Shown: positions 1 through 54,376, numbered from the stretch's first letter. The stretch is 54,492 nucleotides of DNA from Asterionella formosa (GCA_002256025.1 NKIB01013636.1:1-54492); one strand, 5' to 3'. The notes: a model not told the origin generated them from the letters alone. Program-made: numbers and translations.

Positions 1-794
1 TAACTACGGTCTGTGTATCCGTCGGTGGACTCGCTTCTGGTCGGCCGTCTGATGAAAAGAAGGGAATTTCAATGAGGTGTTTCGTTACTTATCAAGAAAT
101 TTAACAGAGGACCACCGCCATCACGTACACAGCGTGGTCTTTGCGGCCGTCATTGGCATTTTGCTTTTGTGGCACATGACCATGTCGATATTGAAAAGTC
201 TTATTTTGGAAATGCCGGGAAACGTATAAATACCACGGTATGCACATGGATGTAGATACCGGTATGCATACCGGTATATGATACACCACTGGGAAGTCGC
301 AAAATAGTACCGGTAGCAATATAGCATGACTTTGCCGTACTGTTGTTGTGTCTCCCAGACAACACATATCATGCTGCCATCCAGTCCATAAAGCCTGGGA
401 GTCACAACGAATACCGGTAACAATAATAGGGCTACACAGTACGAACATCATCGATGTATTTCTTATGAATATACCGGTATATAAACAACATGTATCCCGG
501 TAATATCAATATTGCACTGCATGATACCGATACTGCTAATTTCTTGTAGAAAATATAACGACAACGGTACCCACCCCTTGATCCAGTCTCGTCATATACC
601 GATATGATACCGGTAGTAGTCTTTGGGCATTTGAATGTCCATTTCTATATAGCCCTCAGATTTTCTCAGGTCACGACATGCGATGGTGACCTAAGTCACT
701 TATTGTCCTGGTCCACCTTTTGCAAATGTAAGCAAGTATTCTATCTTTGTTCATTATTATATTAGAAAGACCAAGCAACTTCATCTTCTTTGAC

Positions 795-2127
795 ATGAGC
801 GCCACTAAGAGCACTTTGCGCAAATGGGCGTTCCCCCTAATGATGTTGGTCATCGGTGCCGCCTATGTTACCCTGCCTTCACCATTTGATGCTACTGCTG
901 ATGTGACACGAAGTCTTTCGGTTGATGGCGAGGTTGGTGAGGTCGGTGAGGTCGGTGAGGTTGGTGAGGTCGGTGAGGTCGATATGGAAGTCCGCCGTAA
1001 GCTCGTGGCGCCTTACGACACTTCTGCCTCCATCAAGCTTCCTGCCTTTTACAGTTCAATGGCTGATGTCTGGGAGCCTTTCAGTCGGTTCGACACTCCG
1101 TTCCTGTGGGCCGTTCCTCGTACTGGGTCTGGTACCTTCCAGAGACTCATTTGGTGGTGCATGGGAAAGACAGTTGCTGGTCGCGGTTGCATGAACTGCA
1201 ACAACAGAGTAAGTTACTTCTGTCGGCTCAAGTGTTCACAAGACAAACGTTGAACACCAACTGACTATTCGTTTATTTCATTACCAGACCATGGCTACTT
1301 ACTACGGAGGCCAGTCTAGCTGGGCTCCTTACAATGTCACGTACTTGAATACTGTTGTATTTACTAGGTGGTGGCTGCAAGAGTCTAAGAGCCGTGACCT
1401 GCTTGGATCTAGATTGGCTGATGTGGTTTCAACTCATTTGTTGCAAGATTCCATGACCATCCTTTTCAATACTACGTACAGAGCTCGTGGTTTCATCATG
1501 TTCCGTCACCCAGTCAAGCGCGCTATCGACCAATTCTTTTACCGTCAGCATGCCACATGGGAAAAGACCTTCGATCCTGATGTTGCCGTCATGCTTCTCA
1601 ATGAATATGTCAAGTCGGATGCCTTTGTTGAGAACTTTGTTACTCGATCGTTAGTTGGAAAGACTCGATCTGTCATTGACGTCACTGAGCAAGATGTTGC
1701 GCTTGCCAAGGAAATTTTGCGAAGAAGTAAGTTCAACCATGCAAAAAATCAACCCAATCATATTATGACAAATCCCTTACATATCGTCCTTCGCCACTGC
1801 CTTGTTGCAGAGTTCATGGTCGGAATTTTCGAATGGTTCAACGCTGGTATCATGCGATTTGACCACTACTATGGCTACTGGGATGAGTACGACATGGACC
1901 ACAACAGCACAATTGCCAACTGTCACTATAAACTTATCAAGTGGGGCGACCATGTTGGAAACTACCCGAAAGTTCATAATGAGGAAGATACCATCGAGAT
2001 TCTAGGCCAACGTGATTGGGCTGATGTTGAACTTTATCACTATGCCAAGACTCTTTTCCACGAGCAAACCTCACTCGTTGAGGGACCAGCATCTCTGCAT
2101 GGTGCTCACGCCGCATCGGTCGTCTAA
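795..2127 (+). CDS. Sulfotransferase-like type II membrane protein (diatom-expanded family), 3 exons
   Basis: ATG 795. N-terminal TM anchor (WAFPLMMLVIGAAYV). PAPS-loop-like motif FLWAVPRTGSGT and 3'-PB-like motif MFRHPVKRAIDQFFY. Introns 1209-1287 (GTAAGT..CAG, phase 0) and 1727-1810 (GTAAGT..CAG; removal gives EILRRKFMVGIFE). Confidence 0.75.
927..980 (+). repeat. In-frame 9-bp tandem repeat (GGYGAGGTY)x6 encoding (GEV)6
   Basis: Directly visible: ggcgaggtt ggtgaggtc ggtgaggtc ggtgaggtt ggtgaggtc ggtgaggtc. Confidence 0.95.
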
Positions 2128-3238
2128 GTGACTGAAACAGCAGCCATCAGCTTCATTAAGAAACAAAAGCTTCTCAGTGGGACGCTCCTATTAATAATAC
2201 TATAATACATGTTGAATAATTAGTAAAATCTGAATACTAAAATTTTGCTCATCAATGCCTTCACTAGGAGAAATATGCCTAAAGCTAAATTTAATGTTAA
2301 GAATGCTATTATTGTGAAAGGGCTTGATATTTGCAGAGGTGCGTTGTGAAGTTGTACTTGGTGATCCAGACAATGGTGTGGGTCATCGACCTGCCTGTGC
2401 ATTGTTGTGACAACATCACACTGAACTTTACGGATTACATACACAATGTAGGTAGAACATGTGGAAATCAAACCCTAAACCATAAGGTGTGCTTGACCAC
2501 TAAACAATTCCCATAAAATTAACAAATATATTTAAGTGTGACTAAACTAGCTATAATCAACAATATCACACTTTTTCGCCTAATTTACAAGCAAAAATAA
2601 AAAAAGCTACTATACTAATACTACATCAGAGCAGCAAGGAATCCACTGCTGTCAAATTTGCCTTCTTGCCACAACAACAAATTACAACAAAGCCTAAAAA
2701 GGAGCCTAGTACGACATCAAATTGGGTACTCATGAGCATCCTTTCCCCAAGATTATATAGCTTTTCAATCCATATTGCCAATGTACCAATTTTTTGTCCC
2801 TGCTTGAAAATCAAGCATTTATTTGGGCATGCCACTTTTTGAAAAGAGTTTATGACCTATTCTGGGAATTGTATAAATTTTTATTTGAAAGCTTGACATT
2901 CTGCATGTTCTATTGTCATGAGCAATTGATTCCTTCCCTTCTTGCAAGGCTAGGTAATACAAATTTTCCGGGTCACGACTGAAAGAAAAGAGGTATTGCT
3001 TCGAGCAGGATACCAGTCTGAAAGTACATAACACATACCGGTATGTTACATACGAAACATCATTTTTTTACCTGTAATACCGTTTCAAATTTCGAATGAT
3101 ATAGGGTAGTAATGTTAAATACTCATCATAATACATGATACTACAAGCAATAATACTACCAGGTCAGGATTGTACTACCGTATCAACTGTTGAAAAACTG
3201 TTAAATAACCGATACAGGCACCAAGGTACTCATAGACT

Positions 3239-4375
3239 ATGAAAGGAGGTTTCACCATGGCGAACCAGATCTTAATAACATTCCCTTTGAAAGACTTCAG
3301 TCTGAAACGATGCACGCCCACATGGCAGAGACGAAACCGATGGCAACAAGTGCTTTTCGTCTCTGTTTTTGTATGCGTTGTGGTGGCCTCAACCTGGACG
3401 GCCCAGTTATACCGTGCGATAAGCCTAACTACAATGCTTCAGACAGCAATAGAGGAACACGTGATGATTACAGAAGCAACGACGAGTATATCACCGGTAG
3501 ATTCAATTCCGATTCAGCAGCACAAAATTTTGGTCGTGTTTAGCGGTCCAGCTACAATGTCGGAAGGAAATGTCGACAAAAATGAGTTGTACTTTCGAAA
3601 CTTGGACTTTTTTCTTAAGCATGGCGTGGATTGCAAGGTACAAGATACCATTATCGTACTGGGTCATGACGTTGCGCCACTCTATCGGAAAGAGCTAAAA
3701 GAATTGGACAAGGCATGTGAACGAGACCATGCACATCGCATCACTCTGGTAGAACGCGACAATGTCTGCTATGACATGGAATCTGTCCGAATCGTCATGC
3801 ATGGTAATGTCACGGATATTCTTGCTTACGATTACTTTATATACGTCAATTGTGGAACAACAGGCCCCGTCATACCCAAGAACGAGAAAAATTCATTGCC
3901 GTGGACGAGCGCATTCATTGACAAGATGGTTGGAAATGTCAAAATGGTTGGATTGACTCATTGTTGTCGACCCGCTCATATTCAATCCATGGTCTATGGT
4001 CTGGATAAGGTGGCAATTAAAATCATTAAGGAATCACCTTGTGTCTTTGATTGTCGATCCATAATTTCCTTCTTCCCAAGCATAAATTATGATTCACTCC
4101 TGGGACTTATTATAAATCATTATGAAATTGGAATGAGCCGCACAATCATGGATAATGGGTATGGAATTATGAGCCTGACGAGGCCCAGCATACTCACCAA
4201 GGAAAACGAAGGCAACTGTACTGACCTCGACATTTGGTCAACATCACATTTGATTCAAACTTTTGGCAAGGTGCCTTCGCTAGGAGAGGTTCTGTTTTTC
4301 AAAACTTCCCGTGTTTTGACCTCAGAAACGGCTGCATTGATTAACTTTACTAGGAGAATTTCGTGGAATAAGTGA
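3239..4375 (+). CDS. Type II membrane putative glycosyltransferase (RgpF/rhamnan-synthesis-like)
   Basis: Intronless 378-aa ORF with an N-terminal TM segment. Motifs YDYFIYVNCGTTGP, HIQS and YEIGMS resemble RgpF-like proteins. Start could be 3239 or 3257. Confidence 0.55.
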   Translation: MKGGFTMANQILITFPLKDFSLKRCTPTWQRRNRWQQVLFVSVFVCVVVASTWTAQLYRAISLTTMLQTAIEEHVMITEATTSISPVDSIPIQQHKILVVFSGPATMSEGNVDKNELYFRNLDFFLKHGVDCKVQDTIIVLGHDVAPLYRKELKELDKACERDHAHRITLVERDNVCYDMESVRIVMHGNVTDILAYDYFIYVNCGTTGPVIPKNEKNSLPWTSAFIDKMVGNVKMVGLTHCCRPAHIQSMVYGLDKVAIKIIKESPCVFDCRSIISFFPSINYDSLLGLIINHYEIGMSRTIMDNGYGIMSLTRPSILTKENEGNCTDLDIWSTSHLIQTFGKVPSLGEVLFFKTSRVLTSETAALINFTRRISWNK

Positions 4376-5592: not shown

Positions 5593-6169
5593 TATTGTAT
5601 GATGACCTTTCCTTTTGTTGGCTCTTGTGTTATTGTTAGCTCAAGCACTGGTACCATATTTGGTGCTCCTCATGGTTGACGAATGGCTGAGGGGATGATC
5701 ATAAAAGCTGCTACCTGGTACCAGGTACCAGTACAATGCTTTATATCACTGCGACGCCCTCATCATGATGTCTTTCTTAAATACTTAGATCCTGTGAGTT
5801 TATTATCCATATATATGAAACTACTTCTCTTTTTTTTCATCTATACACTCACATGAGACTAGCGGTATACAATGAAGTTACACAAATGTACCGTGTACCA
5901 CAACAAGGATGGCAAAATATCTGCCAGAGAGCTTATGATTTATACTCATACATCGTACCAAACATGAATCATTATGCAGGTACGGTATGCTGGATATAAT
6001 AAACTGCTCTAACGGCTGGTAACATCCATGGCATCTACCGGTACATACATTGAATGTACTGTAGGAGATAAAAAACGCAAAAAAAGCCAAAATACTGAAA
6101 AATATATACCGGTATTTTTCATTCAAACATCTTCACCTTCTGCCACTTGCTCCATGTTCCTTATCCGCC

Positions 6170-9001: not shown

Positions 9002-10209
9002 CCTGGTGCAGAGCCACAGTAAGTGTATGATATGAGCAAGGTGGAGAATGGTTGCAGTAAGGAATAAGGGCTATGTAATGTGGTACAAAATGACTGGGAT
9101 TGAATCGTTCGCTTTCCTTCTAGGACGAATAAACATGTTTGAAATCTAGATTCGGTATACCAGTAGCTAGTTAGCGGTACCAGATTCAAGGCAACAGATG
9201 ATGCACGACCAACAGCAATCGCACACCACAGGAGCGATTATGGCTACATAATCCTGTCCGTATCATACATTGTGCCTACACGGTATTCAAGTTTGTGAAT
9301 TTACGACTCTAATATATATATATATAAATGTAAAGTTATATAATGCCAGTTATATATTTACATATATATAATGCTGAAATACTAAATTTTGTGGAGTTTT
9401 TGGTGCACCATGATCACAGCTTCTGGAATCAAATATCTCCAATAAAAAGTAGCAGAGGAATATTGCAGCATACCTCTGATAAAGTCATTCAACAGTGGTG
9501 AACATCAGCAGTAGTATGTTCGAAGATACATCCATCCAATACATATGTATGTGTCAGTACTTGAACATATGGATTTATGACATACAGCATACTGCTGCAG
9601 CAGTATGCAGACCCAACAAGGAATGCAATAAATTTATAGAACACACATTAGTAGAACAAGTAAAGAATTGGTAACTGCATTTCTCTGTGTCCGGCAGCAT
9701 ATGTTTTCGTCATGATATGTTCAGCACTTGCTTATATTTTGCTTACTAAATAGCAGAGAATTATTACAACATACTTGGAGTACCATCAGTTAAAAGCTGT
9801 AAGCCACGGCTATGGCGACTTATGGACTGTAAGCCACTGCTAACTGTCGACACGAGATTGCGAAATTTGGATATTTTCATGTTTACTCTATTGAGCCAGC
9901 ATCACCTTTTAAATACATATTAATACATATGTATTCTTTCGCTCACTGGTGTGCCGTAATAAAGAGATAAATTCGCATGTGGAAAATGTCAAATTGGAAT
10001 TCCTGGCACGTCCGATTTAACAGTACAAATTCAAAAGGTGTGTACAACAATCACCCACAATACCAATCATCATGACCGTAAATGCACCTCGAAAAGGCAA
10101 AGCCTTGCCTCGAAAGAAGTTGCCTTCTGAAAAGCTCAATAGCATTCACATTTTTCCTTATCAATGTGCCTAGTAGGGAGCGAGAATCTAAGAAGGCTAA
10201 CAATATCGC

Positions 10210-10699: not shown

Positions 10700-10711
10700 A
10701 GGGAGAATATA

Positions 10712-11697
10712 CCTGCAAGTTGCAATTATTTTGCTGAAATTGATGATGTGACAATTCAGGACAGGCGTTTAATTATATAGAAAACGTCATCAATTCAGTC
10801 CTTAAAACCGTCTGTATGCATGGTGATCACCACTTATTGATATACTAGGTTTTATGCTAAGTTTAGTATTTTTTTAACTGTGAATCTATAAATTTCATGA
10901 AAAAATGCGCTATCAGCTATTTCAATTTTTGTTGTCAATATTAGTGTTATTACAACTATTCTTTTACAATTGAATTTTTTATATTGTGCTCATTATATAT
11001 ACCCAATAGCAAAGCGTCGTTCTCATTTTTCATGGAGATATTTGTTAATTTTGTCATGGTCAAGGCTGGTGAGAAGACATGATGCACCATGCATACTCCA
11101 GCCACTCATGACGACTACTACTCTGCAGTGCTATACCAGTAAATATTTTGTCTATAGAAAATCAAGAATTGAATCATCTAAGATAAATAATTACAGGTAT
11201 ATACAAGCGCTTATGAGTGCTAGTACCTCAGGTACTACCCTGAGCAGCATGAGTCCAGCCACCACCAGCATGCATATGGTGATACTATGGTTTAATAGTT
11301 AGATCGGGTACAACTAGTTGTTACATGTGATGATGCTAGCATTCAACTATTTCAAATTCTAATTGATATAGAAATTTTCATTATTGGTTGTTTTCATCAC
11401 TTCAGCCAGAAAAGGAGAACAATTTTGAGTTTGGAGAGAATGAAGCAGCAATGTAAGCAAGATTAGCTTACTTTAGCTTCTGGCCACCCCTCTATTGCCC
11501 CAGTCATTGTCATTTTTTTCAGCCATTTGTCTTTTTTGGCATTTCTGTGTCTAGACAAAATAATTATTCACATCACTAACAAGTCATGATACTGTTGACT
11601 CAAAGAGAGAGAGTTGATGAAGTTCTCTTTTTATAAATTTTGAGTGCCTGTCCTGCGTCACATTGTCCATTTCAACAATATGACCGCAACTTGCTGG
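10712..11697. mobile_element. Non-autonomous TIR element (MITE-like), TA target duplication, ends CCTGCAAG...CTTGCTGG
   Basis: Left end TA|CCTGCAAGTTGC...GACAGGCG...AAAACGTCATCAA is the inverted counterpart of the right end TTGATGAAGTT...GCCTGTCC...GCAACTTGCTGG|TA. A third copy of this end lies at about 31860-31993. Confidence 0.75.
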
Positions 11698-11894
11698 TAT
11701 CTGGTACCAGTACAACCTGGTACCTGATACCAGGGTACCAGTACCGTACTAAAAACCAGTAGGTATGCATATGGGAACCACGTATCCTAACGCACGTGTG
11801 GCGTTCCATTTCGCCTGTAAAAGACGAGTAAATCGGGTAAATGCATAAAATACTCGGAGTATTGCTTTGAGAAAATCCTCATCAAGCAACACCA

Positions 11895-16500: not shown

Positions 16501-18395
16501 CATTGATTTGCCTTTCCAACGAACCGTCCACAATCGCTCTAGGTACTGGAGAAAGCTCGCCTAGAAGGCTCTTAATCAAGGCACTCTTTCCTGATCCAAC
16601 AGGTCCAACGACCGCAACGACTTCGCCAGGCTTGATCTTCAAGTTCACGCCACAAAGCGCTGGGGTGTCCAACTTATGCTCCTCGTCACCTTTGTTTGAG
16701 TTTGACCACAAAAAGTTGCCATGCAACATTTCAATACTTCCGCCACCACCACTCAAAACAGGTAGCGTCTCAACATATGGGATGATCTCCTCTGCCGCAA
16801 GGTAAGTTGAGACTCGCTTCAGAGCATTACGGCCGTTGGCCAATGCGTCAATCAACATCGGGTAGAAGAACAATGGAAATCTGAGTTGATTGAAGAGCGA
16901 AATCGCTGTGAAGATGGTACTAGCCACAATCGGTTCGCCTGTTCGCGCGTATGCTGCTAAAGTTACCACCAAAACCAAGGCAGGCACAGCATTGGAGATA
17001 GCTTGATTCACTGCACGGATGATCCCCCTAGCCTGATGTCGTCGCAACTCTTCGTGTCGATATTTTCGAATGTCATCCGCAAAAGTTTCCTCCCAGCCCT
17101 GTAACTTCAATAGTTTCATATTGGATATCGCTTCACTTGTTCGTCTCGTCCTTGCATCTTTGGCTTCGTTCTCAAACTTGCTCATCTTGTTCAAGATCCG
17201 AAGAGTGATACTATTCAATGGGATTGTTAGTAATAAGACGCCAATTCCCCACAAGACTGAGCGTCCGAGATAGCGAAATAGCAATGTCGTGTACATTGCA
17301 ATCTGAAAAATAACAGAGGTTTAGTAGTCATCCGTTTATAGACAAGTAAATATACACCATGAATCCACTTACCTGCAAGGGGCCGTCCCAGATAGTGTGC
17401 AATTGAAGTGCTGTTGACTCCAAAATAGATGCGTCCGATTGCATTAAGTTTAGCACGCCACCTGCTCCGAGCGCAGCCTTCTCTTTTCCGTCTGTTTCAC
17501 TGACCGATGTTCCTCCTCCACTTGGAAGTCTCAGTGATTTGTCGAATATCAAACCGGCTAGGGATCCTCTGACTTGTGTTGCATACTTGACCACCAGGTG
17601 AAAATACTGATTCTCAATGAGCATTTTGACGGACAAGACTGCAACAAGGGAAATTACCGCAGTGAGTGCTTTGGATAGTGGCTCCTTATTCCCGGACTCT
17701 ACCAGTCGCAATAACCTAGCGACCAACAATGCGGGAAATGCTTGAATGGCTGTATTGACGAATCGAAGAATCCCAGTCAAAATTAACGTTCGCCGTTGCT
17801 GAAGGAGCAGAGCCTTGGCCAGCACTGTAGACTCCGAAGCGACCTCGTTGCCCTTCACTTTTGACTCTTCTATCTTCTTGCGCGCCTTACTGTGACATTT
17901 TTCATAAATGCTTGCCAGTTGAGGGACAGCTGACCCCATCTTTCTTTGCTGAGGTACGGGAAAGGCGTCACTTTCTTCCAGTTGGCGCTCTGAGGCTAAA
18001 TCCAACAACGGGGATGCATAGCTGAACAGGAGACGGGATGCCATGGTTGCATTGTACTCCCCAAGTTTCCACCGTTCGTTCTTCCTTCCAGGGCTTGGGA
18101 TAAAGTGACTTAAAAAGTTGAGGATACCACCACTTGGCTGCGATTCTGAAACTCCAATTGACGCGCTCATGGACTTTGGAGAAGCTAGATTGCTGACAAT
18201 TGTTCCAGCAGAGGTCGGTACGAAGGGCGAAGCCAATGGAAGTACCACATGGGCCAAAACTACGAGTATGGAGACCATCCTGGGCCTAGAGAGCCTCCGT
18301 TTCCGAGACTTCCGTCGCAGCGACGCACTGTCTGATGGTCTGTGATCATTCATTTCGATTTGTGGTATGGTCAACTTGTCCTCTTTCATCTGCAT
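13580..18395 (-). CDS. ABCC/MRP-family full ABC transporter, 2 exons
   Basis: TMD-NBD-TMD-NBD layout. NBD1: GPVGSGKS, LSGGQ, LLDD. NBD2: GRTGSGKS, LSAGQ, VMDE, AHR. Intron 17303-17372 joins WDGPLQ|IAMY. Start is 18395 or, more likely, 18278 (signal-like MVSILVVLAHVVLPLASPFVP). Confidence 0.93.
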
Positions 18396-19058
18396 GGTCC
18401 GCAACTCCAAACCTAAACGCCTTCTCTCGACTGACGTGATGCTGCTCCTGAATGAGCTGTTCTGGGGTCGGAGGTGTGAGGAGCCTTATATGGAGTATTG
18501 CCTATAATATTGCTTACCGGTAAGCTAATACTATTACTGTGTTCCCTCGTACCAGGGTACCGGTACCTGGTACAGTAATCAATATTACATGCCTCAGTGG
18601 GTCCTCACGACGTTCAAAACCTATGTATATTTTGCTTAACAACAAAGCAATCCATGACACTACGATATGAGACCAACATAATGTTCAGTCTATTTTAATA
18701 GCTGCAGTCTAAATTTCACACTAATTTACCTTGCTGCTCTATTGGTCCAGTACCTGGTACCTGGTCCCCCTCGTACCAGTACCTGATACCCTGGTGTCGT
18801 AGGAGTGCCAGGTAGCTGGTGCTACCTGATTCCTGGTCCTCCTACCAGAAGGACCTGGTTTTTACATTCGACGTGATACGTAGTGCAATATTTTTATTAG
18901 CACAACGACCAGTACCAGGTAGTACGGAGTACGGAGTACGGAGTACATCTGGTCGTCCCTGGCTGGTAGAATACGCACATAAAATATAAATTTACTCGTC
19001 CCCCACTCACCCCATCCTCACAAACCGATGACGCATTCACCAGACAATCGCAGGTGCG

Positions 19059-19087
19059 TGGTACCAGGTACCTGGTACCAGGTACCT
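19059..19087. repeat. (GGTACCW)n palindromic array
   Basis: tGGTACCaGGTACCtGGTACCaGGTACCt; 19059-19080 is a perfect 22-bp palindrome. Confidence 0.95.
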
Positions 19088-19436
19088 GCCTGTCAGAGCA
19101 CGATACCTGGCGGAGTACCCTGGTAACTGGATGTCTACATGGCGGGTCAGGATCTTTCAGAAGATACCGGACCGGGTATACATGTAGCTGTACCGATATG
19201 TATATTATGATCACTGTTCTCGCAAAGCTGTGCGGGCGGATGTAGCGTATTGATTTTCTCGATGGCGTCAGTGAGGTCGGCCGCATGCAAGGAGTGTGCA
19301 GATCATACGAACCCGAAATTTGTTGCGAACCCTTGGACAGATCCATTTATCAATCCATCCAGACAACCTTCACTGCTATCGGGCATTGATATTGAAAGGC
19401 CCCTGCTATTCAAGGCTTACAACACCAATCAGCAGT

Positions 19437-20438
19437 ATGCGTGTTTCCCTTTTGGCTTCCTTGCTTATTACCACTTTCACCTCTGTTGTTTCGTTCCACG
19501 CACCTGCTTTTGTCCGTCACACTTCAGCTCTCGCCATGGCAGAAAGATACACCATCCCAGATCAACCTGCTCGTTTCGCGCGGGCTCAAAAAGAAAATAA
19601 CCAGCGGTATCTCAACATTGAATCTGTCTATGATCCATCCTTCATCAAAGGACTTCGGGTCGCTGTCACTGGAGCAAATCGAGGTGTTGGTTTGAGTTTG
19701 GCCAAAGAGTTGACTGCTCATGGCGCGAGAGTTATTGCAATTTGCAGGTCGAGTTCTCCAGAATTGGAAGCATTGAACCCAGAGGAAGTGGTCATAGGCA
19801 TTGACGTTCAAAATGACGAACAATGTGAAGGCATCAAGGACATGATCAAGGGTGGACCAGTTGATATTGTGAGTGTGTAGAAGTTGTTGGAAGATATTGT
19901 GAGCATGCTCAATTTCCTGTTCTCATACGCTTCTACTTGTCAGTTAATTAATAATGCTGGATACTTCTATGAACCATTGGAGACGCTTGACTCGCTCAAT
20001 TTCAAAGAGCAAATGAAGCAAATTGACATTTGCGCGATGGGTCCACTTCGTGTCTCAGCGTCTCTCTATGACGGCAACTTATTGAAGGAAGGTAGCAAGG
20101 TAGTCATGATAACTTCTCAGGGCGGAAGTATAGCGTGGAGAACCACACAGAACCCAACAGGTCATGATTATGGTCATCACATGTCAAAAGCGGCTGCCAA
20201 TATGATGAGTGTGTTATTGTCACAGGAGTTGAAGGGCAAGGGTATCATCGTAGGCATCTTACACCCTGGTTTTAACAAAACAGAGATGACTGCAAAGTAC
20301 AAGGAGATCTGGGAGATCGAAGGTGCCGTTGATCCTGAAGTCGGTGCCAAGAGAGTCATCTACGAGATTGGACGAATGACCATGGATACAACTGGGAAGT
20401 TTATCAACTGTGAAGATGGCCTCGAAATTCCATGGTAA
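19437..20438 (+). CDS. Short-chain dehydrogenase/reductase (CsgA/C-factor-like), probably plastid-targeted, 2 exons
   Basis: ATG 19437. Signal peptide plus VVS-FHAP (ASAFAP-like). Motifs TGANRGVG, INNAG and LHPG. Catalytic region reads YGHHMSKAA. Intron 19869-19943 (GTGAGT..CAG, phase 0). Confidence 0.9.
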
Positions 20439-21369
20439 ACAGGTTTTAAGGCTCAGAGCTACTAATACTAGGGTTAAAAGCACGCAACAATATGTGTTAA
20501 CAATGATTCTGTAGAATGATAGGAATCTGCATTCTAGTTAATTGTGTGAGTGCAATACTGCCAGTGTACATACATTGACTCGTGGAATGATGCAGTCCTA
20601 AGGAGGCTAATATGTTATGAATTGGTCATAACTAGTATGACGTTGTTATACTAACTGACTGAACAATCGTTTCCTTGTCTGTTCAGTCTTTCTATTTATT
20701 TTGTAGACTCTATTACAATTGACTCCCTTCTTTTAACCAATACCCCTCCAAAATCCTATGAGCTTGTCAGGTCTAGTTGCTAATTTCCATTTCTTCATTC
20801 CTCTCTCCATTGCCATTTTTCATAACAAACAAAGCTGTGACACTGTTACTTGTTTTGAAAGCTCCTTTAGGATCATGATGTACATCAGTAGCCTACTGGC
20901 TGCAACTTTTATTTAGATTTGCACTGCCCAGCATCAGGGCCATTTGTATTGTTTTTCATTGGGTATCGCTTCATTTGAAAATTTTTGAAAATGTATCAGC
21001 AATGGTAACTCGATCTGAACTGAATTTCCTCCATTCTCCTTGAAGAGGTTATCGCAGACAATCGTTCCACTTGTTATTGCTAGTAGTATTACGTCGTTGT
21101 TGCAAAAATCGGAGTGAGGACTGATAAAGATGATGAGCCAAAATACATTACTTTAGCTGGTACATTATCCTACCAAGAAATTGAAACACAGGAACCTAAT
21201 TAGAAACAATACTTATAATAATAAAATACCAAAAGGGTTACTATTTAATTTACGAGGGCATTTATCAAAATTATTTGATGATATATCAACAAATTATGAT
21301 CCGATGATCATAATCCTATGATGCACCATAGGAATATGATGGTTTCTATTTGCAGACAAATGCAGCAGC

Positions 21370-31797: not shown

Positions 31798-31859
31798 ATG
31801 CCAATGGGCAGTTGAATTTACTAATTGTTTTCCCTGTTTCATCCCGTTTTGGGAAAAGT

Positions 31860-32271: not shown

Positions 32272-32585
32272 TGATACACTGGTACTCCTACCAGCCAGGT
32301 GAAAACCAGTGCACCAGGTACCAGTACCAGTTACCAGGTACCATCATCAACGACATCACGGACAATTTACTAGACTAGTTTACAGGTACCGTACCGGCAT
32401 ACCTAAAGATGATACGAAGGACACCCCTGTTGGTGTGGTTGCTCACATGTCGGTACATTGCTTTTGATTAAAAATACTGTTGGACGACACTCTGACGGAT
32501 TACTGCAGACCTGTGTTCCACTCATCCCTGTCTTTTCTTACTTGTTAGACGACATAGACCGAAGGAATTTCAGTAAGAAGCAAGA

Positions 32586-34160
32586 ATGCTGGCTTCAAAA
32601 CGACTCCTGACACCTTCAGCGCTTTTCCGCCTTTCAACCTTGTCCAGCAGCAAGAACACACCACGCCTAGCAGTTATTCGTTGCTTTTCTGGAAGCGAAG
32701 ATGATCCATTCGGTGTCAATTACAAAGATGGCGAAGGAAACATCGGTCCTTCAGAGGAATTGCCTCCAAAACTCGTCAGGGATAGAATGACCGGAAAATT
32801 GACCGGCGTCGTCGAGCAAACCCTGACTGACCAACAAAAGAAGCTCCTAGAAATGGACGAGATCGACTCGCAAAAGAAGATGATGGACGATTTGGTCGAA
32901 AGCTGGGTTCAATCCGAGAGTGACAAGATTGGAGATCCCATCAAGCAGGCTCAATTCGCCAGTCGCATCCGAGAGGAGACGATGGCTCTCAACGTTTTTG
33001 GAAGATCACCAGAGGCCACTTCCCTTCAGGGTAAACTGGATACTGGTGATGATGCCCTGTACAGTGACCTTTCCTCTGATTTATCACCGAAAGAATTTAA
33101 GTCCCTTCAAAAGTACATGTCTCGAGAGAAGGACTACGAGCTGAAAAGGAATCATGATGATGTTCCTGTCAAAATGTCACCTTACAGAGAATCGACTTAT
33201 GCAAACCCTGATCCTGACCTAGACCTCAGGTGGTTGTCCTCTGGTTCTCATAGTGAAATGGACGGTGGGAAAGTGGAAGACCCATTCGCTGATTTGATGC
33301 CTCATGATCTTAACCCAGCTCGTTTGGTCAATCGGGAGAAGGCCAAGCAAATCCCAACTGAACTTGTTCATCACAACAATATCGTTCTTTTGCGCCGATA
33401 TCTGACACCAGGTGGTCAGATCATGAATAGAGTACAGAGTCGTTTGGGAGCCAAGGATCAGAGAAAGATGTCCAAACTAATCAAGCGAGCTAGGTCAATG
33501 GGGTTGATTCCCTATATGGGACAGTGGAAGGTGGAGAATCACGGAAGCATCTACGATAGCGACATCTTCCTGAAGAGAAAATGGGAAGAAGAGCTAGAAG
33601 ATAGAGGTTTGGTTCCGCCCAAAATCAAGGAAGCTGATTGGGAAGCTATGCGAGAATCTGCGACCCTCAAGTATCAAAAGGAAGCTAAGAGGCATGTGGG
33701 TCTGGATGAAAACCCATGGGAGGCTGATCCGTGGTGCCTTTTGGCAGATGATATTTATTTGGTCATGAAGACCAAGGGTATCAGACTCACAAAGAACAAT
33801 GACGTTTACCTTACTTTTGGAATCTCGCAAATGAAGTTAAGTGGAAGTGGAGACGTTGTATTTGTTGATAAAACTGGGGTCATTGCCGAAGGACGCTTCG
33901 AGTTATCTCAAAGTGGTGCCGTTTCGCTCTCGTGGAATAAGGCAGTGAAGTGGAAGGATGATCATTGGGAAAGCGTGACTACGGCTGATTTGGTTACTGG
34001 CTTCAAATTTACCGATCAGAGCGTTGCCAAGTCTACACTCAGCTATGGAGACATCTTGGGCAAAAGAAAAGTTAGTCCCATCGACGCAATGAAGGCCAAT
34101 GAATTCAGCGCACACGCTATCGAATGGAGTGCAAATGAACTACGTAAGTACGTGGACTAG
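32586..34160 (+). CDS. Mitochondrial ribosomal protein bS18m with long N-terminal extension and extra C-terminal domain
   Basis: Mitochondrial-type presequence (MLASKRLL...IRCFS). S18 core HNNIVLLRRYLTPGGQIMNRVQSRLGAKDQRKMSKLIKRARSMGLIP. About 170 further residues of globular-looking sequence. Confidence 0.8.
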   Translation: MLASKRLLTPSALFRLSTLSSSKNTPRLAVIRCFSGSEDDPFGVNYKDGEGNIGPSEELPPKLVRDRMTGKLTGVVEQTLTDQQKKLLEMDEIDSQKKMMDDLVESWVQSESDKIGDPIKQAQFASRIREETMALNVFGRSPEATSLQGKLDTGDDALYSDLSSDLSPKEFKSLQKYMSREKDYELKRNHDDVPVKMSPYRESTYANPDPDLDLRWLSSGSHSEMDGGKVEDPFADLMPHDLNPARLVNREKAKQIPTELVHHNNIVLLRRYLTPGGQIMNRVQSRLGAKDQRKMSKLIKRARSMGLIPYMGQWKVENHGSIYDSDIFLKRKWEEELEDRGLVPPKIKEADWEAMRESATLKYQKEAKRHVGLDENPWEADPWCLLADDIYLVMKTKGIRLTKNNDVYLTFGISQMKLSGSGDVVFVDKTGVIAEGRFELSQSGAVSLSWNKAVKWKDDHWESVTTADLVTGFKFTDQSVAKSTLSYGDILGKRKVSPIDAMKANEFSAHAIEWSANELRKYVD

Positions 34161-35352: not shown

Positions 35353-35945
35353 TGCTTTAAAAAAAGAGTGAGCTTAATGTACATGTAAATTTGAATGTAT
35401 AATTTTGAAACTTCCAAGCTCATGCATGTTTCAAAATAGAGGTGATCTTCGGAGGTGACGTTCATTTGTGTTCCCAACTTGAACTGAGAATAAACTGCAT
35501 CCTCTTCCTAAATACACATAGCTACTATGACATGTCTCATCTTGACCTATCTCAACTTAGGCCAGATGCTGTTTGATCAATGGCTGCTTACAGAATGATC
35601 ATGTTAATCATCACTAGATTATACCTGGTTTGCTTCTTTAATGTTCCTTGATTTTGCGGACATATCTGCAATTTTTTAGTCAATCATTTATTGATTTGGC
35701 CTCTATTAGGTCTGGTCGCCTTCAACTAGTAGAGTCCATTTAAAAGGCTAGCTAGAGAGAACTTCTCCTGAAAGTTACTCTCTCAAATGTGGCATTTTAC
35801 ACACGTTATTTAACCATGTGTCCTTGAATCGATCATCTAGTGGATTGTGGTACATGTTCCTACCGGTAATCAGGTCACTAGAGACGAAAGAAATTGACAC
35901 TCTCATAACCTGATCTTGAATCAGGAATCTCTATATGCTTCAACT
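35353..35945 (+). repeat. Dispersed ~590-bp repeat, copy A
   Basis: Colinear with 42859-43434, from aaaagagtgagcttaatgta to gaatcaggaatctcta.atg.ttcaact. Confidence 0.95.
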
Positions 35946-36619
35946 ATAGTTTGGGATACAATTCAGCATATCGAATTGAATACACGGTATGAGCGCAGCA
36001 TCAGTATACCGGTATGCATGTATGGCCGGTTTTATCATTTTCTGACTACGTGGTACCAGGTACCCTGGTACCGGGGGACCCATCACGAACCACACATGGA
36101 ACAATGAACACCAGCCAACCACCAACAACCACAAAAAAAGTATACTGGTAGATATGCCCGGTAGTACAGTTTACTGATGGGTAGTTACTACCGGTACCAC
36201 CGGTAGTCTACAAATTATCATTATCATGATAATCATTTTACATCCCATATAGTACCGAATACCGGTACACTAAGGAGCATTTTACAATTGTTTATCATCA
36301 TCTTTCGTGTCACATTGCCGATATCAGTCTGGCATCATCACCAAAAAATAGAAAATGATTCAACTTTTGTCATGATTGGCAAATATCTGATGGAATTGAT
36401 CAAATATAAATAATCTTCCATTTACTGTAATTCGTAGAATTCATGGGTCAGTGAGTTGTTCTCTTATCGATCATAGCGACAGAGAGTCGCTAATACTGCA
36501 GGGCAAGTCTTGTAATTAAGATGGGATACAAGGAGAGAATCCTTCTGGCAAGGAGGTTTTCTGCCGGAACAGGACCTGGGATTATTGAATGCTCTGATGG
36601 AAGGCTAAGGGAACGAGGA

Positions 36620-42858: not shown

Positions 42859-43434
42859 TGCTTTTATAAAAGAGTGAGCTTAATGTAAATGTGAATTTGA
42901 ATGTATAATTTGAACCTTCCGAGCTCATGCATGTTTCAAAATAGAGGTGATCTTCGGAGGCGAGGTTCATTTGTGTTCCCAGCTTGAACTAAGAATAAAC
43001 TACATCCTCTTCCTAAATACACATTTTTCTAATCTTGACCAGCTCTCAACTTAGGCCAGTTGCTGTTTGATCAAAGACTGCTTACAGAATGATCCTGTTA
43101 TTCATAACTAGATCATATCTAGTTTGCTTCTTTAATGTTCCTTGATTTTGCAGACATATCTGTTATTGTCTAGTCAATCATTTATTGATTTGGCCTTGTC
43201 TAGGTTGCTCTGATCGCCTTCTAGAGTCCATGTAAAAGGTAAGAGAGAACTTCTCCTGAAAGTTCCTCTCTAAACTGTGGCATTTTACACGCGATATTTA
43301 ACCATGTGTCCTTGAATAAATCATCTAGTGGATTGGGGTACTACATGTTCCTAATCAGGTCACTAGAGACGAAAATTTATTGACACTCTCATAGTAACCT
43401 GATCTGGAATCAGGAATCTCTACATGTTTCAACT
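42859..43434 (+). repeat. Dispersed ~580-bp repeat, copy B
   Basis: Colinear with 35353-35945, same orientation. Confidence 0.95.
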
Positions 43435-44510
43435 CGTCCTGTATACTTTTGTTAGGCTATATCTTAGCACGACACAAAAACAGACAGATATGAGCTTTTT
43501 TAGTCAGTGCATCAAATTTCATTGTGTCCGTCCTCATTTCCAATCCAATACACAGCGCAAGCGGCCATTGTTCTTTTATGTCTACACCAAAAACATTGGC
43601 TGGAGGACACGCAGAAACTAATCAACAAATAAATGACTTGGAGAAAAAATAATTACCAAGGATCATGTTGGGATCTTTGCCATCTTTGTATTCTTGAACT
43701 TATTTTTTGTTGCAGCCCTACTACTAGCTAGTTGAAGAACTTTCAAAGTATTTTGGGTTCTGGAGGGACTGGAATGAATTTTATATTAGAATGAACATGT
43801 CTAAGTCAAAGGGTAAGGTGATAGAATTGTTATTCCGACATACTAAAAATAGTAAAGAATACATATAATAATACATAAAATGTGAAGGTGGGTTTGTGCC
43901 AGCAAATGAAATGACTGTGTAGGAATAATTCTAGATGAAGGACTTAAAAAGTTCAGGCTAACTATCATGGATTATTGACAATGACAAAGAATATCGATAG
44001 ATAATATTTTTCATAAGACAAACAGTTTTATTTACGACTACAGGTACACATAATATATAAATAAATATATACATATGTATATATATAATCATGATTGCTG
44101 GTACTCCCTCTGGTGGGCGAAAACAATCACGTCAATTCTTAAAATTTCTCTGGGGCCATTTTAATTCCTACAATTTTCTCCGGCTTGATTACCCTAATGT
44201 GTACCTTGCGCTTAGCAATAGGCAGTCCATGTAAATTGACAACTACTTTTCAAACAAAATTTCGGTTTTGTCGATTTTCACTCACTCATGGCCATCTCAG
44301 GCAAAATGCAGATGCATCTAAGCCGCGTATTACATGAAGTGACCATCAAGTAAAAAAGCCTAGCTGATTTTGAATGGATCACATGAATTAGTTGAATACA
44401 TCAAAATGCTTACTTGAATATATCTATATATTATCTAAATACATCACGTTAATTATTTGATCAGAGTATCATGCATGCATTCCTGATCATCACTATACAA
44501 CGTGATCACC

Positions 44511-44680
44511 TTCACATAATTATTTGAAATACTTCACGTAATTATTTGAAATCCTTCATGTAATTATTTGAAATACTTCACTTAATTCTGTAATTTATTT
44601 CACATTGCCTTATAATTTTGTTCACGTAATTCTATAATATAGTTCACGTACTAATGTATTAAATTTGTTTACGTAATTTA
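44511..44680 (+). repeat. 22-bp tandem array (about 8 degenerate units, TTCACGTAATTATTTGAAATAC)
   Basis: Units start TTCAC/TTCAT every 22 nt from 44511. Confidence 0.85.
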
Positions 44681-46008: not shown

Positions 46009-46560
46009 TCAATTCTGTGTGATTCGTAGTACATTCAGAGCATTGTAGCAACTGCGTGGCAACCCATCGGTCCCATGCTTGTTCCGCCTATAAAGAGCTC
46101 TTGGATCGCTCCCTCGAGTGTCATTGACTCCATATGACGTTTTTCTCCTTCTCAGTTCATCTTCTAGAATGGCTTCTCTTACTGAAATCACTCCATCTGG
46201 CCCTAATCGGTTTCCAGTCAAATACAGTTTGGTCACAGCGCACCCTCTCCTGATCCCATCAGCCAACGCCATGGCGCCTTTTTCCCGCATGTGATTCCCT
46301 GCCAAGTAGAGCGTATGCAAGGCAGATCCAAACAAAGCACGTGCCTATGATCTAATCCCATCATCGCCGACTTGGTTGAATCCAAGATCCAATGATCTCA
46401 AAGCGCGGTGTGCTGAAATCCCGACAGCCAACGTATTAAAACATACCTTCGTTGCCCAAGTTGTTTTAGTAACCTGGTTTGAGAATGGAAAGATTTGAAT
46501 TCTGCAGCAGGGCCACTTTGACTAAGCGTGCGCCTGATGACTGCAATCCTCGCTGTGATA
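46009..46560 (-). pseudogene. RNI-like leucine-rich-repeat gene fragment
   Basis: RGLQSSGARLVKVALLQNSNLSILKPGY*NNLGNEG /frameshift/ ALRSLDLGFNQVGDDGIRS*ARALFGSALHTLYLAGNHMREKGAMALADGIR..VTKLYLTGNRLGPDGV. Confidence 0.8.
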
Positions 46561-49500
46561 ATCAATCTACCAATCGTGAGTACGGATGGAGTATTTGAGG
46601 GAAAAAATCGCCAAGGGGTTACTAGAACAACTGAGTCATGACACAGCGCAAGACAACAACATGCACTCGGGGTGCTTGTACCAGTACATAACTTGGTTAG
46701 CTATCATCGCATGATTGTTTCTGATAAGTGCTGAAGGAAACTCTCTCAAGTCGGCATTGCTTTGGAGTAGTGCGAGTTCAATTTGCCAATTTTACATTGA
46801 CAATGCGCACTTATTTCAGCCTACAGCGGCGATGTTTATGGTTGCATCAATTTGGCGCATGAGGATGGCGAAAACTCTTTTCACTGTCATTTCTTGGCCG
46901 ATTCATACCTTCTCGGCATATGTACCATACGTTACTTGAGTTGCATTTCGCAATGATTATCCTCTAAATCAATTTTATCTTGAACTTTTAAAATATGTAG
47001 TTGTAACATGAACTAGTTTTTTCTTGGAAATCACTGTATGATTCTGAACCATCGCATGAAAACCTCGAAGAGAAGTTTTGTTCACTATAATAGTTCATAT
47101 TATTTACGTGAAGTGCACAAATATAAACTGTAGATGGTCCATGCATGAAATAAGACACTACAAATATCATTACTATTTCACAAATAAAGATGCAGGTAGA
47201 AAATCAATTAGCCACGAGAGCATGATATTAGTTGAACTTTGAAATGAATTATTTGAAACATCAACTAATTCAGTCTTGAGTTCAAAGTTCATTGTGAGAA
47301 CTTCACATGAAACCGTTAAAAGTAACCTTTTTTACGGAAAGAGTGGCATTAAATGAGGACCCATTTTTCTTCGAACCATTTATTCTCTACATACATACGA
47401 AGAAGTTTATAACTGTAGAGAAACAGTAACTTGTTTTCGATCATGGAATGCGCAACTGCGAAAGTGGCGATGATGGGAAGGAAGAAAACGACAGAATGCT
47501 CGTTTTAATAATTGGAACCGTTTTATGTCCGGTGCTCTTTTCATGTTATAAATATCATAGTAGCATGTTTTATTCAGTTTCCCGAAAATACTTGAGTGGC
47601 CGGCCAATGTAAAACAGCAAATGTCGATGTGTATGCACATGTTCGCTATCAATATATGTACTGTATGTCATATTGGTTTCGAATAATTTATTTAGAAGCT
47701 AATAATATTTTAATTTGTGATTAAGAATTTATACTCACGTCTAAATAACTAATTAAAAACACATTTTTCGAGTAAGCCGACCCTCACAAAGAAAAGTGGT
47801 ATATTTTCTACGTAATGCGCACTACAAATAAACTGCTCGGCACTTGAGTGGCTGCAAATTGACGCAATTGTTTTCTCTCAGAGGGAATACCAGGTAACTG
47901 GTAGGACATCAGTATTACTGGTGTCACTATGATAGAAGTGCTGTACCTGGTATCTGGCCCCGGTAATCCTAGAATCCATAAAAGCAATAAAAAGTAGTTC
48001 TGGCTTGTGGTAACAATGTAGTAAAATAAAACTCGTTGTAGGGGTCAAAAAGCTTCATCTATGGATTAAAAGATGTGTACTGAAAGACAACGTTATGAGT
48101 CAAAATGGGTGACATAAAACAGCATTCACATGCAGCACTTGAAAATTTTCCTCTGGTATATTGGGTACGGAAACGTGTAGTGGGAGTAATTAACTAAAGA
48201 AGATTGTTGTTGTCCCTCTTTTCTTATAGTAAACTGATTAATAATTTTATAAGTTGCCATGTGTTGATTAGTATTTGGATGCCCCTCTCGCAGGTGATGG
48301 ATAGGGCAATCATACAGCATGCAACGCCGCTCACCATCATCATTGATGGTTGCAATGGATGAATTACTATAACTAGTATGGATGAGGCCAATATTCTAAC
48401 AACAGTTGCTAGTCAATTAGAGGCTATTGGAATGATGAACGTGAATGCCACTATATTGATAAGGCATCCATGTAGCTATCATCCGCCATTCTAGTCAGTT
48501 TGTAAGGCTGACAGATAGGTCGATTTGTAGATTATTGGAGGTAAAATCCATTTTTGATCCCACAGAAGGTCACGACAAGAACGTTCTTCGGATGTCCTAA
48601 CACTAACCTCCAGTAGCATCTTCAAAATCTGGTCACCTGGAAATTGCCCAACTCATGCTGGCGTTTCCTTGGTTTCTTGGATGCAATATAATCACGGTTG
48701 CATCAGCATCCTTTTCCTGTTCCTTTCGTCAGGATCCCTTTCTTATGCAGTCGCTCTCCATGGAATCACAAACACCGCCGACTAACGGAGATTCGTAAAG
48801 AGAGAGAGTGAGTTGACGTTTTGAATGGCAACACAGCAAGCCAAACAATCAACCTTCTCCAAGGAGTTGATCGGATTATTGACGAAAGGTCGCCTTGCCT
48901 CTGTCAAGTCCTCATCAGTAGTAGCTATCCAGCGGTTTATTAATTCCCAAATGTAACATTCACCTCGATGTCGACCAACCATGATTAGGGCACATGAAAG
49001 GACGATTATCGAACTACAGTGCTGGCAGAGTGATGATCACAAGGATCATGACAAAGCAACAAGCAACAATGAGCCAGCAAGCAAGTGCAATTAGTAAAAC
49101 CTACATACACTCATACCAGCAAGAAGCAATGTACTCCACTTTTCAAAGCTTGCTGGTTGTTCATGTTCATTTTTTCAACTGAAGATTTAAAACAATTTCA
49201 TCATGGTTTTGTCAAATGACATAGGATTGGCTATTACTATTGCCTATTTTTCAATCGTGACGTATGCAATTCGATTGCTCAGAGCAGCTGATTTATAGCC
49301 AAAATTTCTCAATCAAATGACTTGCTGGTAATCATTGATGTGTGTGATTTTTGATGTTTGATAAAGGCACCCACATCAATAACTTTAGTCAAAAGATGGA
49401 GTGATCAAATGTTGGCTCTCAGTTTTTAGGTGGACCTGGTACCAGTACCATACATACTTAAGCTTTCTTCATAAAAGAAAGCGTAAGTCTGGAATGCTGC

Positions 49501-50196
49501 CCAGTTTCGCCAAGAGATGAAGACGTCGAAAATCGCAAATCGTGTCGATTTCATAATTTCGGAGATTCATCACTCATGTGTCTTTTTGTAGAAACCTTCG
49601 TAGCAGGCTTTGTTCTGCCTGTGATCACATCACGGTAAAGCTAGCAAGGTGAATACCGGTAATCCAACTTTTATTACTGGTAGTACTGTACAAATAATTG
49701 ACGACGCACAGACCATTGATGAACCTTCCATTGTACATCGTTCAATTTACAGTACCTGGTACCAGGTACCAGCTACCGCTGGTACAAACAGGTAGACATA
49801 TGTACCACATCACATTTTATGGGAATGCATTTCCTGATCTCCATGTGGGAGGGTGATCATTCATCAGCATTGTTGTTCTCCAATGGGAGCATTATTTAAT
49901 TTTGACATGAAGGATATAGCATTTTATTCATGAATGATTATACACTCCGTACCTAAAATGGTCGTGATGAAGGCGATGATGCAGGCTATATGTACACCGC
50001 TAGTACTCCGAGTATACGGTATGATATTGTCTGCTATAAAATCTAGACTACGGGTATGCTGTGATACATATGTATAGAAAATATTTATACCGGTATTATT
50101 ATATGATGTAAATATAAGCAATACATTACTGGAGTGCAACTATAAATAATCAATTTACATCTCGAGCGAGTAATAGAAAAAGCAATATTCTCGGCA

Positions 50197-53508: not shown

Positions 53509-53759
53509 GGTCGTTGAAGATCACTACAGCACAATCAACCTTTGAAACTCTCCGTGCTTTATAGAAAGGATCGGCGGTGGGTGAATCCTTCCAGGACTGC
53601 CAATACCTAGCTTGCTATTCTCTTGATATTTTTGTTACCGGTATACCGGTATATCATTGGAAAAGGAATGTCGTCTCCTGTAAGATGGTGCGATCATTTT
53701 ACGTCCCTGAATGTATACCGGGGTACATCGGTAGACTACCCTGGTACAAGGGTGCTACC

Positions 53760-53793
53760 GGTACCAGGTACCAGGTACCTGGTACCTGGTACC
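53760..53793. repeat. Perfect 34-bp palindrome (GGTACCA)2 GGTACC (TGGTACC)2
   Basis: GGTACCAGGTACCAGGTACCTGGTACCTGGTACC equals its own reverse complement. Confidence 0.97.
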
Positions 53794-54376
53794 TAGTACT
53801 CCGAGTAGCCACCGGTAGACAATACTCTTTTTCTTTACTACATGACTCTTGGGGCTACGTACATGTATAGGGTTTACATATTTTGAATACGGCACACATT
53901 ACTGAGGGGCAGGCAAAGCCTACATGAATCCAGTACCAAGACCTATGTAGTCGGTCGTGCCTAATTAATCATGTATATTTATTGCCCATGCTGTATGTAG
54001 TGTGTTTGTATTCCTTTTGCTTACCGGTAGTCGGATACCTTAATTAGGATATGCATAGGTGGTCCGGGATGGCGCGGGGGTTGGGAGGAACCCGTGCGAC
54101 CAGGTTACCAGGTACACTAGAACGCACTGCTGGTCCGAAAAAGGTGTATCCAGTTGAATCATGTGAGGAACGCACATGATAAATATTTAGAGAGTATCAT
54201 GTGCGTTGTTTTTCGGGGTGGGTCGGAATCCTCGCTCGTGTTGGAACCGTTGTTTGTGCCAAAAGCGAGCGACTGAGGGTCGTTCTTATCATTCCGAATT
54301 TGCTGTATCATTTCCGGGTTGCGGGCAAAAAGTGACGGTTGGTATCAAAACACGGTATCAGCAACGGTAACTTGAT

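Follow-up and report, generated by a model that had tools for sequence, protein, structure and literature searches.

The question raised by the 54.5-kb stretch of Asterionella formosa DNA analysed here (the window; GC content 36–48%) is how the spacers between its genes came to be so rich in short palindromic words bounded by TA, above all TACCGGTA and TACCWGGTA. The original prediction had read such words as footprints of excised transposons. Our calculations and comparisons favour a narrower form of that idea: TACCGGTA, TACCWGGTA and related words are probably excision footprints of a resident, non-autonomous cut-and-paste family that duplicates TA and has the ends CCWGCAAG...CTTGCWGG. The counts of the words, the termini of the resident family and the insertions and deletions (indels) found at TA in repeated and allelic DNA are given in the next sections, followed by the points that weigh against this explanation and the alternatives to it.

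Over-Represented Words in the Spacers

The window contains 27 copies of TACCGGTA, 16 of TACCAGGTA, 10 of TACCTGGTA, 11 of TACCAGTA and 4 of TACTGGTA. In 100 dinucleotide-preserving shuffles of the window, the mean was 0.15 for TACCGGTA (27 observed) and 0.13 for TACCWGGTA (26 observed), and the observed number was reached in none of the 100 in either case. The counts and positions first reported for these spacer words are borne out, and the clusters named with them were all found at their coordinates. Moreover, no 8-mer of the window ranks above TACCGGTA, whether the background is Markov-1 or Markov-2.

Among all TA-x-TA words with fillers of 0–6 nt, CCWGG (26 vs 0.50 expected) and CCGG, that is, CC+GG (27 vs 0.55), rank first and second, and CCAGGG/CCCTGG (5 vs 0.09) and CCAG/CTGG (15 vs 2.1) rank next. 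Counts above expectation were also obtained for the fillers CCWG (13 vs 1.9), CWGG (7 vs 2.0) and CCWGGG/CCCWGG (5 vs ~0.17), and one-letter fillers are mildly enriched (TACTA/TAGTA, 132 vs 86.5). Perfect copies of the motif and copies with one substitution occur at about 1:1, with no pattern of tolerated positions.

Part of the original prediction did not survive these counts. TACATGTA occurs three times (19179, 35380 and 53860; 1.4 expected) and TACTAGTA twice (6792 and 24105; 0.6 expected), which is not above chance, and the CATG and CTAG filler families show no enrichment in the window. To say that the intergenic DNA is written by footprints is an overstatement: recognisable motif units make up 686 nt, or ~2.6% of the 26,556 bases outside open reading frames (ORFs), with some clusters dominated by units.

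The Resident Element Family

A TA-flanked family with the ends TA-CCWGCAAG...CTTGCWGG-TA resides in the window, and its copies a, b and c are listed in Table 1. Scans for TA-flanked pairs of terminal inverted repeats (TIRs) starting with CC, CA or CT gave copy a at 24 nt with up to 7 mismatches, and motif arrays only at 14 nt with up to 2 mismatches. Three ends (both of copy a and that of copy c) align over ~90–110 nt at 73–75% identity, the end of copy c sharing 75% identity with copy a's left end across 109 nt; an interior piece at 28437–28631 is ~70% identical to copy a at 11369–11553. The other end of copy c was not found, the best local alignment scoring 27.0 against a shuffle mean of 26.9.

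The target duplication is the 2-bp TA in copies a and b and at the end of copy c, and flanks of 3 and 4 bp do not match in copy a (ATA/TAT, TATA/TATC). With one mismatch allowed, TACCWGCAAG matches the window 16 times against 5.96 expected, a number reached in none of 100 shuffles. The family's terminal sequence is also present in two metagenome loci, L045 (a mini copy of ~135 bp) and L007 (~100 bp, with GA and not TA as its right flank), both of which abut motif clusters. The sizes therefore form a series of 990, 217, ~135, ~100 and 45 bp, followed by the fillers of 4–5 nt. The TIR-pair scan of the metagenome loci returned only low-complexity TAC/TAG/CCWGG pairs, the ORFs of copy a gave no Pfam match, and viral contigs searched with the terminal sequence gave 0 matches.

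The termini CCWG/CWGG match the enriched fillers exactly, as CC+GG, as CCW/WGG, as CCWG or CWGG alone and as CCWG+GG, and the words predicted from these ends are 25- to 170-fold enriched. The proposal that the fillers derive from resident TIR termini accordingly has support for CCGG and CCWGG and lacks it for CATG and CTAG. The same division applies to the three TA-flanked TIR families that had been proposed: the CC(W)G..C(W)GG family is real, as indicated by the TIR scan and the sequences, whereas nothing convincing was found for CA..TG and CT..AG. The sole candidate for these two is a low-complexity repeat at 9540–9933, and the object at 47887 has arms of only 7 nt that consist of the motif itself.

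Indels at TA in Paralogs and Alleles

Two repeated segments of the window differ by motif units at TA. The ~600-bp pair 35353–35945/42859–43434 reads GTTCC-TACCGGTA-ATCAGG (at 35861) in one copy and GTTCC-TA-ATCAGG in the other, and shows TA against TACTA and TA against TAGTA in addition; with the one-letter C and G fillers included, motif-type events account for 3 of its 14 gap runs. One contig of run X7 also has the empty form at 35861, TA being followed directly by ATCAGGTCAC. In the inverted pair 24161–24352/28630–28813, where 2 of 5 events are of the motif type, TACCGGTA at 24311 faces TA, and TACCTGGTA at 28652 faces TC; with the 7 bp removed, the latter site reads GGGTACAAG against GGGTCCAAG in the paralog. 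Contigs of other genomic copies of the site at 28658, five from X7 and three from X9, read ...GTGTCTA-GTACCCC. Because these eight also lack the 7 bp, the insertion at 28652 is the derived state.

Alleles were compared in metagenome loci, which were picked by the presence of a three-unit array (at least 124 stretches matched the exact pattern in metagenome contigs). One locus of a close relative occurs in five records: L035, L092, L091, L111 and the more diverged L045. In the first four, which are 98–99% identical and have substitutions at ~4 positions, all five indels are motif units. At two sites (CCCT-TA-GGC and GATAGG-TA-GG) an isolated TA alternates with TACCGGTA, and the other three indels are single 7-bp array units. 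At the CCCT-TA-GGC site L045 carries a deletion of 6 bp, which brings the states of this TA to three; at GATAGG-TA-GG both L045 and L035 are filled and L092 is empty. The flanks CCCT-TA-GGCT and GTTCC-TA-ATCAGG cannot supply CCGG, which leaves the insert unexplained by template switching to local sequence.

Motif presence thus varies among alleles that are 98–99% identical and among paralogs, and is not conserved in these comparisons. Of the expected series at single sites (plain TA, TA-x-TA, full element), TA against the filled form was observed at three paralogous and two allelic sites; the full element was not seen in the contigs compared or in the metagenome loci. The comparison of the window with contigs of other runs covers 12 of 45 indels, individual spacer indels not being among them. 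Over 18000–21011 a contig of X2 differs by 3 substitutions and 22 gap letters, and over 31837–32891 a contig of X7, shorter by 21, differs by 5 substitutions and 21 gap letters. No metagenome contig matched an exact 24-mer taken from next to the 18.5-kb spacer.

Proposed Mechanism

By analogy with Tc1/mariner elements, a transposase supplied in trans would cut the non-transferred strand 2–3 nt inside each end and would leave CC or CCW overhangs on both flanks. End joining that keeps both overhangs would yield TA-CC+GG-TA from a 2-nt stagger without loss, and TA-CCWGG-TA from two 3-nt overhangs overlapping at W; since copy a ends in CCT and CCA, the overlapping W letters can pair. Every scar would create a second TA, where re-insertion and excision would add further units, so that serial events at new TAs give mixed-unit arrays with shared TAs. 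Slippage of the 7-bp unit would then lengthen or shorten the arrays, and a bias towards the 5' sides of genes may come from insertion into open promoter DNA, from purging elsewhere, or from both.

Units of 6 and 7 bp and both letters for W alternate, with shared TAs, in the arrays at 53756–53799, 18558–18572 and 5712–5733, and a run of five identical CCAGG units lies at 32233–32268. The prediction that nested arrays grow by repeated insertion and excision is therefore supported in part: heterotypic units sharing TAs, as at 53756, fit serial events, whereas runs of identical units fit slippage.

Several results weigh against the excision of a resident family as the source of the words. One-sided 3-nt footprints of the mariner or Sleeping Beauty type are not enriched (TACCWTA, 10 vs 7.7 expected), and the six-letter CCW+WGG fillers number 0 in the window. 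No transposase was found in 22 large ORFs and 75 spacer ORFs of the window or in 62 ORFs of related loci, and no site carried both a full element and a scar among the contigs compared and the metagenome loci. TACCAGTA and TACTGGTA in the window could instead have come from TACCGGTA by CpG decay: their joint count is 15, other neighbour pairs reach 0–5, and the observed/expected CpG ratio is 0.69 in non-ORF DNA. At GATAGG-TA-GG, the filled state of both L045 and L035 makes precise loss (by GGTA..GGTA microhomology) or recurrent gain the likelier history. The 7-bp array changes and the 21-letter gap total are explained equally by slippage, and the five identical units at 32233–32268 look like its product. 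Finally, the strong 5' bias described below is also expected of a promoter element.

A Second Group of Loci

Among the metagenome loci, 35 belong to one contig series (Ga0100/Ga0210) with a GC content of 0.446 and eukaryotic genes, including one for DUF6824; their source is probably a second diatom. With the seed masked, these loci contain 2.05 TACCWGGTA, 0.99 TACTAGTA, 12.5 TACTA/TAGTA and 0.17 TACCGGTA per kb, values that are biased by the selection of loci for arrays. In eleven loci resembling the window, selected and biased in the same way, TACCGGTA reaches 2.24 per kb. TACCAGTA/TACTGGTA occur at 1.12 per kb in the second group; since they are common there while TACCGGTA is rare (0.17 per kb), they are primary words in that group.

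In the spacers of L010–L013, L029, L034, L052 and others, almost the whole sequence is TA with C, G, CTAG, CCWGG or CWGG in between, as in CTACTACTACTAGTAGTAG beside GGTACCAGGTACC; the grammar is that of the window in a different alphabet. If the words of this second organism are also footprints, the ends of its elements are predicted to start with C(C)WGG or CTAG.

Position of the Words Relative to Genes

Coding and intergenic DNA were compared in the 54-kb window and in ~98 kb of metagenome loci. Of the 73 motif sites in the window, 70 fall outside stop-to-stop ORFs, in agreement with the intergenic excess anticipated for TA-x-TA words, and two of the remaining three (6107 and 24527) precede the first ATG. 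At least one site is present in 11 of the 12 spacers that have a 5' gene side and in one of the six convergent (3'/3') spacers. Of 16 genes, 11 have a core motif in the 500 bp that precede the first ATG, and none has one within 300 bp downstream. For these 11 genes the nearest motif is 63–361 bp from the first ATG, a distance that does not refer to the transcription start. The flanks of the palindrome show a mild A/T preference, with A at −1 in 14 of 27 copies and T at +1 in 11 of 27.

The upstream excess, the near absence from convergent spacers, the palindromic form and the flank preference all suit the alternative that the words are dimeric transcription-factor sites or core-promoter elements (TACC/GGTA half-sites with 0 or 1 spacer) under selection, their likeness to the element ends being coincidental or element-borne. 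We regard this as unlikely. Selection on a binding site does not generate the exact indels of 6 or 7 bp by which paralogs and alleles differ at TA, and it does not place sites within repeated elements distant from genes, such as those at 35861 and 28652. Moreover, the ratio of about 1:1 between perfect and one-substitution copies shows none of the tolerated positions of a binding site. The filler spectrum also differs between the organism groups (TACCGGTA, 2.24 vs 0.17 per kb), and such a difference in alphabet argues against one conserved binding site. It is possible that scars have been co-opted as promoter elements, which is compatible with their origin by excision.

Other Alternatives

The clustering of the motifs, with new copies beside old ones in arrays, and the three states at one site, including the 6-bp deletion (L045/L035/L111), suggest a hotspot of breakage. 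On this basis, another agent might break TA and repair of the polymerase-theta type might copy a neighbouring motif, so that the word spreads without excision. Such an origin appears very unlikely: it needs an unexplained TA-specific break together with TA duplication, it does not account for fillers that equal the ends of a resident TA-flanked family, and the insertion at 35861 has no motif to copy within tens of bases.

Mini- or microsatellite dynamics, in which a 7-bp unit (GGTACCW) arose once and spread by replication slippage and unequal exchange, would explain the run of five CCAGG units at 32233–32268, the alleles that differ by one 7-bp array unit and the contig with a gap total of 21 letters. 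The arrays, and the arrays only, do resemble minisatellites in having 7-bp units and whole-unit length polymorphism between strains. Unlike minisatellites, however, the units are heterogeneous (CCGG, CCAGG and CCTGG), share TAs and match transposon ends, and isolated single copies are common. Isolated TACCGGTA at single TA sites are beyond slippage, and neither the 27 dispersed copies of a 6-bp insertion product nor the arrays at 53756–53799 and 18558–18572, where 6-bp units stand beside 7-bp ones and both letters for W occur, are explained. We therefore hold a satellite origin to be highly improbable; slippage fits best as a later process in arrays that some other mechanism had started.

A preference of the element for the motif as a target (TA in GGTACC or ACCGGT), in place of the motif being its product, is hardly credible. 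Element ends do abut clusters (11697–11750, L007 and L045), but copies a and b have left flanks unlike the motif, and neither the indels of TA against TACCGGTA nor the identity of filler letters and termini is explained.

Some candidate agents and origins were rejected outright. Conservative recombination by a Crypton-like tyrosine recombinase leaves no such scars, and the ends do not match the fillers. Fold-back or template-switch synthesis and hairpin opening (P nucleotides) were both dismissed as origins of CCGG, since the flanks at three sites cannot template it. A piggyBac (TTAA) or PIF (TWA) duplication was excluded because the flanks fit only the 2-bp TA.

Comparison with Known Systems

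According to PMC6943129, excision of Tc1/mariner elements involves a cut of the non-transferred strand a few nucleotides within the element, and joining leaves the first or last 2–4 nt between TAs, footprints of 1–2 bp also occurring; the canonical footprints of Sleeping Beauty are given there as TACAGTA and TACTGTA. The words described here resemble these footprints in having TA on both sides and a filler of 2–4 terminal letters, with both versions of W. They differ in that both overhangs are kept (CC+GG, CCW/WGG) and not a single 3-nt end, and in that they are a standing population of genomic scars, the top words of the window, and not the products of an assay. As in the IS630-Tc1-mariner family, a 2-bp TA duplication and TIRs are present; no DD(E/D) transposase was found in the ORFs searched, and a partner element may lie elsewhere in the genome.

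MITEs (transposable elements of miniature size with inverted repeats) derived from Tc1/mariner elements, such as the Stowaway-like ones, are short and non-autonomous, have TIRs and a TA duplication, form size series by internal deletion and lie near genes. The family in the window shares with them the short copies, the TIRs, the TA duplication, the size series and the proximity to genes, and differs from them in that its terminal sequence CCWGCAAG was matched to no described family in the sources used, which included no eukaryotic repeat database, and in that no autonomous partner was identified. Footprints of Ac/Ds and other plant elements, which can change genes and promoters, come from the duplicated host target by hairpin chemistry, vary from site to site and form no recurrent word or arrays. 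What they have in common with the scars described here is that short additions persist and create allelic diversity.

The excision chemistry is known, and the scale and the building of arrays appear to be new. In the literature searched, with most subscription journals outside its coverage, we found no report of the motif, of TA-x-TA scars in diatoms, of promoter DNA dominated by scars or of arrays built from footprints.

Implications

Taken together, transposon traffic, besides point mutation, looks like a force that shapes the promoter-side DNA of this freshwater diatom. Excision footprints are well established at single loci; here, scars appear to head the over-represented words of the region, to lie just upstream of most genes and to build arrays, and they appear to account for most of the differences between near-identical alleles. 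If the same holds genome-wide, they would be a mutational engine for promoter evolution in diatoms. Their origin by excision, if true, would explain odd palindromic motifs that motif-discovery pipelines would call regulatory, and would make the scars a readable fossil record of transposon activity and fast-evolving markers that separate diatom populations in metagenomes.

A more far-reaching scheme, which we consider doubtful though worth stating, is that the writing reinforces itself. The family would hit nucleosome-free 5' regions; each excision would add a GC-cored palindrome and a fresh TA; and blocks of GGTACC/ACCGGT would act as promoter architecture, as factor sites or as nucleosome-excluding DNA. 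Promoter sides would then evolve mainly by transposon and at more than the rate of point mutation, and the element ends together with repair habits would set the alphabet of each diatom (CCGG-rich here; CCWGG, CTAG and one-letter C/G in the second group).

Table 1. Element copies, motif clusters and sites of paralog difference in the window.
Feature	Coordinates	Strand	Sequence and context
Copy a, full non-autonomous TIR element, 990 bp including both TAs	10710–11699	+	TA-CCTGCAAGTTGC...GCAACTTGCTGG-TA; from the TIR scan
Copy c, terminal ~130 nt	31866–31997	−	Ends ...CTTGCAGG-TA
Copy b, mini copy, 217 bp	49114–49330	+	TA-CCAGCAAG...CTTGCTGG-TA; internal CTTGCTGG at 49151–49158
Six isolated TACCGGTA	257–615		Upstream of the plus-strand gene at 732
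Array TACCTGGTACCAGGTACCAGTA, and TACCGGTA at 6036 and 6107	5712–6114		Divergent MoaC/Tfb4 spacer
Motif cluster TA-TCTGG-TA-CCAG-TA-...-CCAGGG-TA-CCAG-TA-CCG-TA	11697–11750		Abuts the right end of copy a
Densest spacer, 10 motif sites, mixed arrays, many degenerate CCWGGT pieces	18515–19186		Divergent promoter of ABC transporter and short-chain dehydrogenase (SDR) genes
TACCGGTA	24311–24318		Plain TA in the inverted paralog (~28672)
TACCTGGTA	28652–28660		7 bp absent from the paralog (~24330, reads TC) and from other genomic copies
(GGTACCA)5 array and satellites	32102–32400		Upstream of the S18 gene
TACCGGTA in repeat copy A	35861–35868		Plain TA in copy B (~43352)
Motif cluster	36007–36267		Upstream of the UvrD-like gene
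Two 3-bp differences in repeat copy B	43343–43397		TACTAC vs TAC and TAGTA vs TA (fillers C and G)
Motif clusters	49438–50095		Between mini copy b and the actin gene
Mixed-unit array TA-CCGG-TA-CCAGG-TA-CCAGG-TA-CCTGG-TA-CCTGG-TA-CCTAG-TA in a cluster	53636–54114 (array from 53756)		

Genes and Other Repeats of the Window

The window carries intron-poor eukaryotic genes for MoaC, Tfb4, an amine oxidase, an ABC transporter, CASP, mitochondrial S18, a UvrD-like helicase and actin. An exact match to the amine oxidase was found in Logan assemblies only, and its named relatives, 32–39% identical, are all from diatoms (Seminavis, Cylindrotheca, Nitzschia, Fragilariopsis, Pseudo-nitzschia and a metagenome-assembled genome of Bacillariaceae). 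A 10-kb stretch of the window is present in 20 DNA runs from 15 studies, chiefly freshwater metagenomes. The short-chain dehydrogenase gene at 19275–20438 consists of two in-frame ORFs with a single stop between them (19878–19880), which could be due to an intron, a pseudogene or a sequencing error.

Next to copy c of the TIR family lies a high-copy element at 29270–31800, whose summed contig depth in run X1 is ~140,000–220,000 against ~800 for single-copy DNA; it seems to interrupt copy c. Its two minus-strand ORFs (29849–30550 and 30541–31653) have no Pfam matches, and GTGGTGCAATGGTGGTGCA-like direct repeats lie close to both of its ends (29272 and 31778). In language-model features, the larger ORF is nearest to the clusters of NDC10_II, DUF3435, DUF3504 and the phage-integrase SAM domain, which suggests a Crypton-like tyrosine-recombinase element. 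Contigs of X1, X7 and X9 skip a 116-bp segment at 30030–30145 that has TA as its first letters and another TA after it, so other copies of the putative Crypton-like element are without it; the segment is possibly a different small TA-duplicating insertion, with the ends GTTTTGAGGG...CTCTCAACCC.

The ~600-bp repeat at 35353–35945 and 42859–43434 is 85% identical between its copies with gaps, reaches a summed depth of ~410,000 in the runs and has neither TIRs nor coding capacity; each copy has a TACCGGTA upstream, at 10 and 43 bp respectively. The most repeated stretch among the parts compared is 20536–21803, with a summed depth of 243,000–488,000 in X1, and within it 21366–21782 is 78% identical to metagenome locus L014.

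The long gene-poor spacer at 41.9–50.3 kb contains a 22-bp tandem unit (CTTCACRTAATTATTTGAAATA-like) repeated five times at 44487–44662 and a leucine-rich repeat fragment at 46012–46344. Another recurring word, CTGCCGGTAA (TTACCGGCAG), occurs three times, at 28170–28345 and at 44718, and does not have TA on both sides. At 54377–54413 there is a perfect palindrome with 18-nt arms (GGTATCAATTTTGTATCA and TGATACAAAATTGATACC) and a 1-nt centre.

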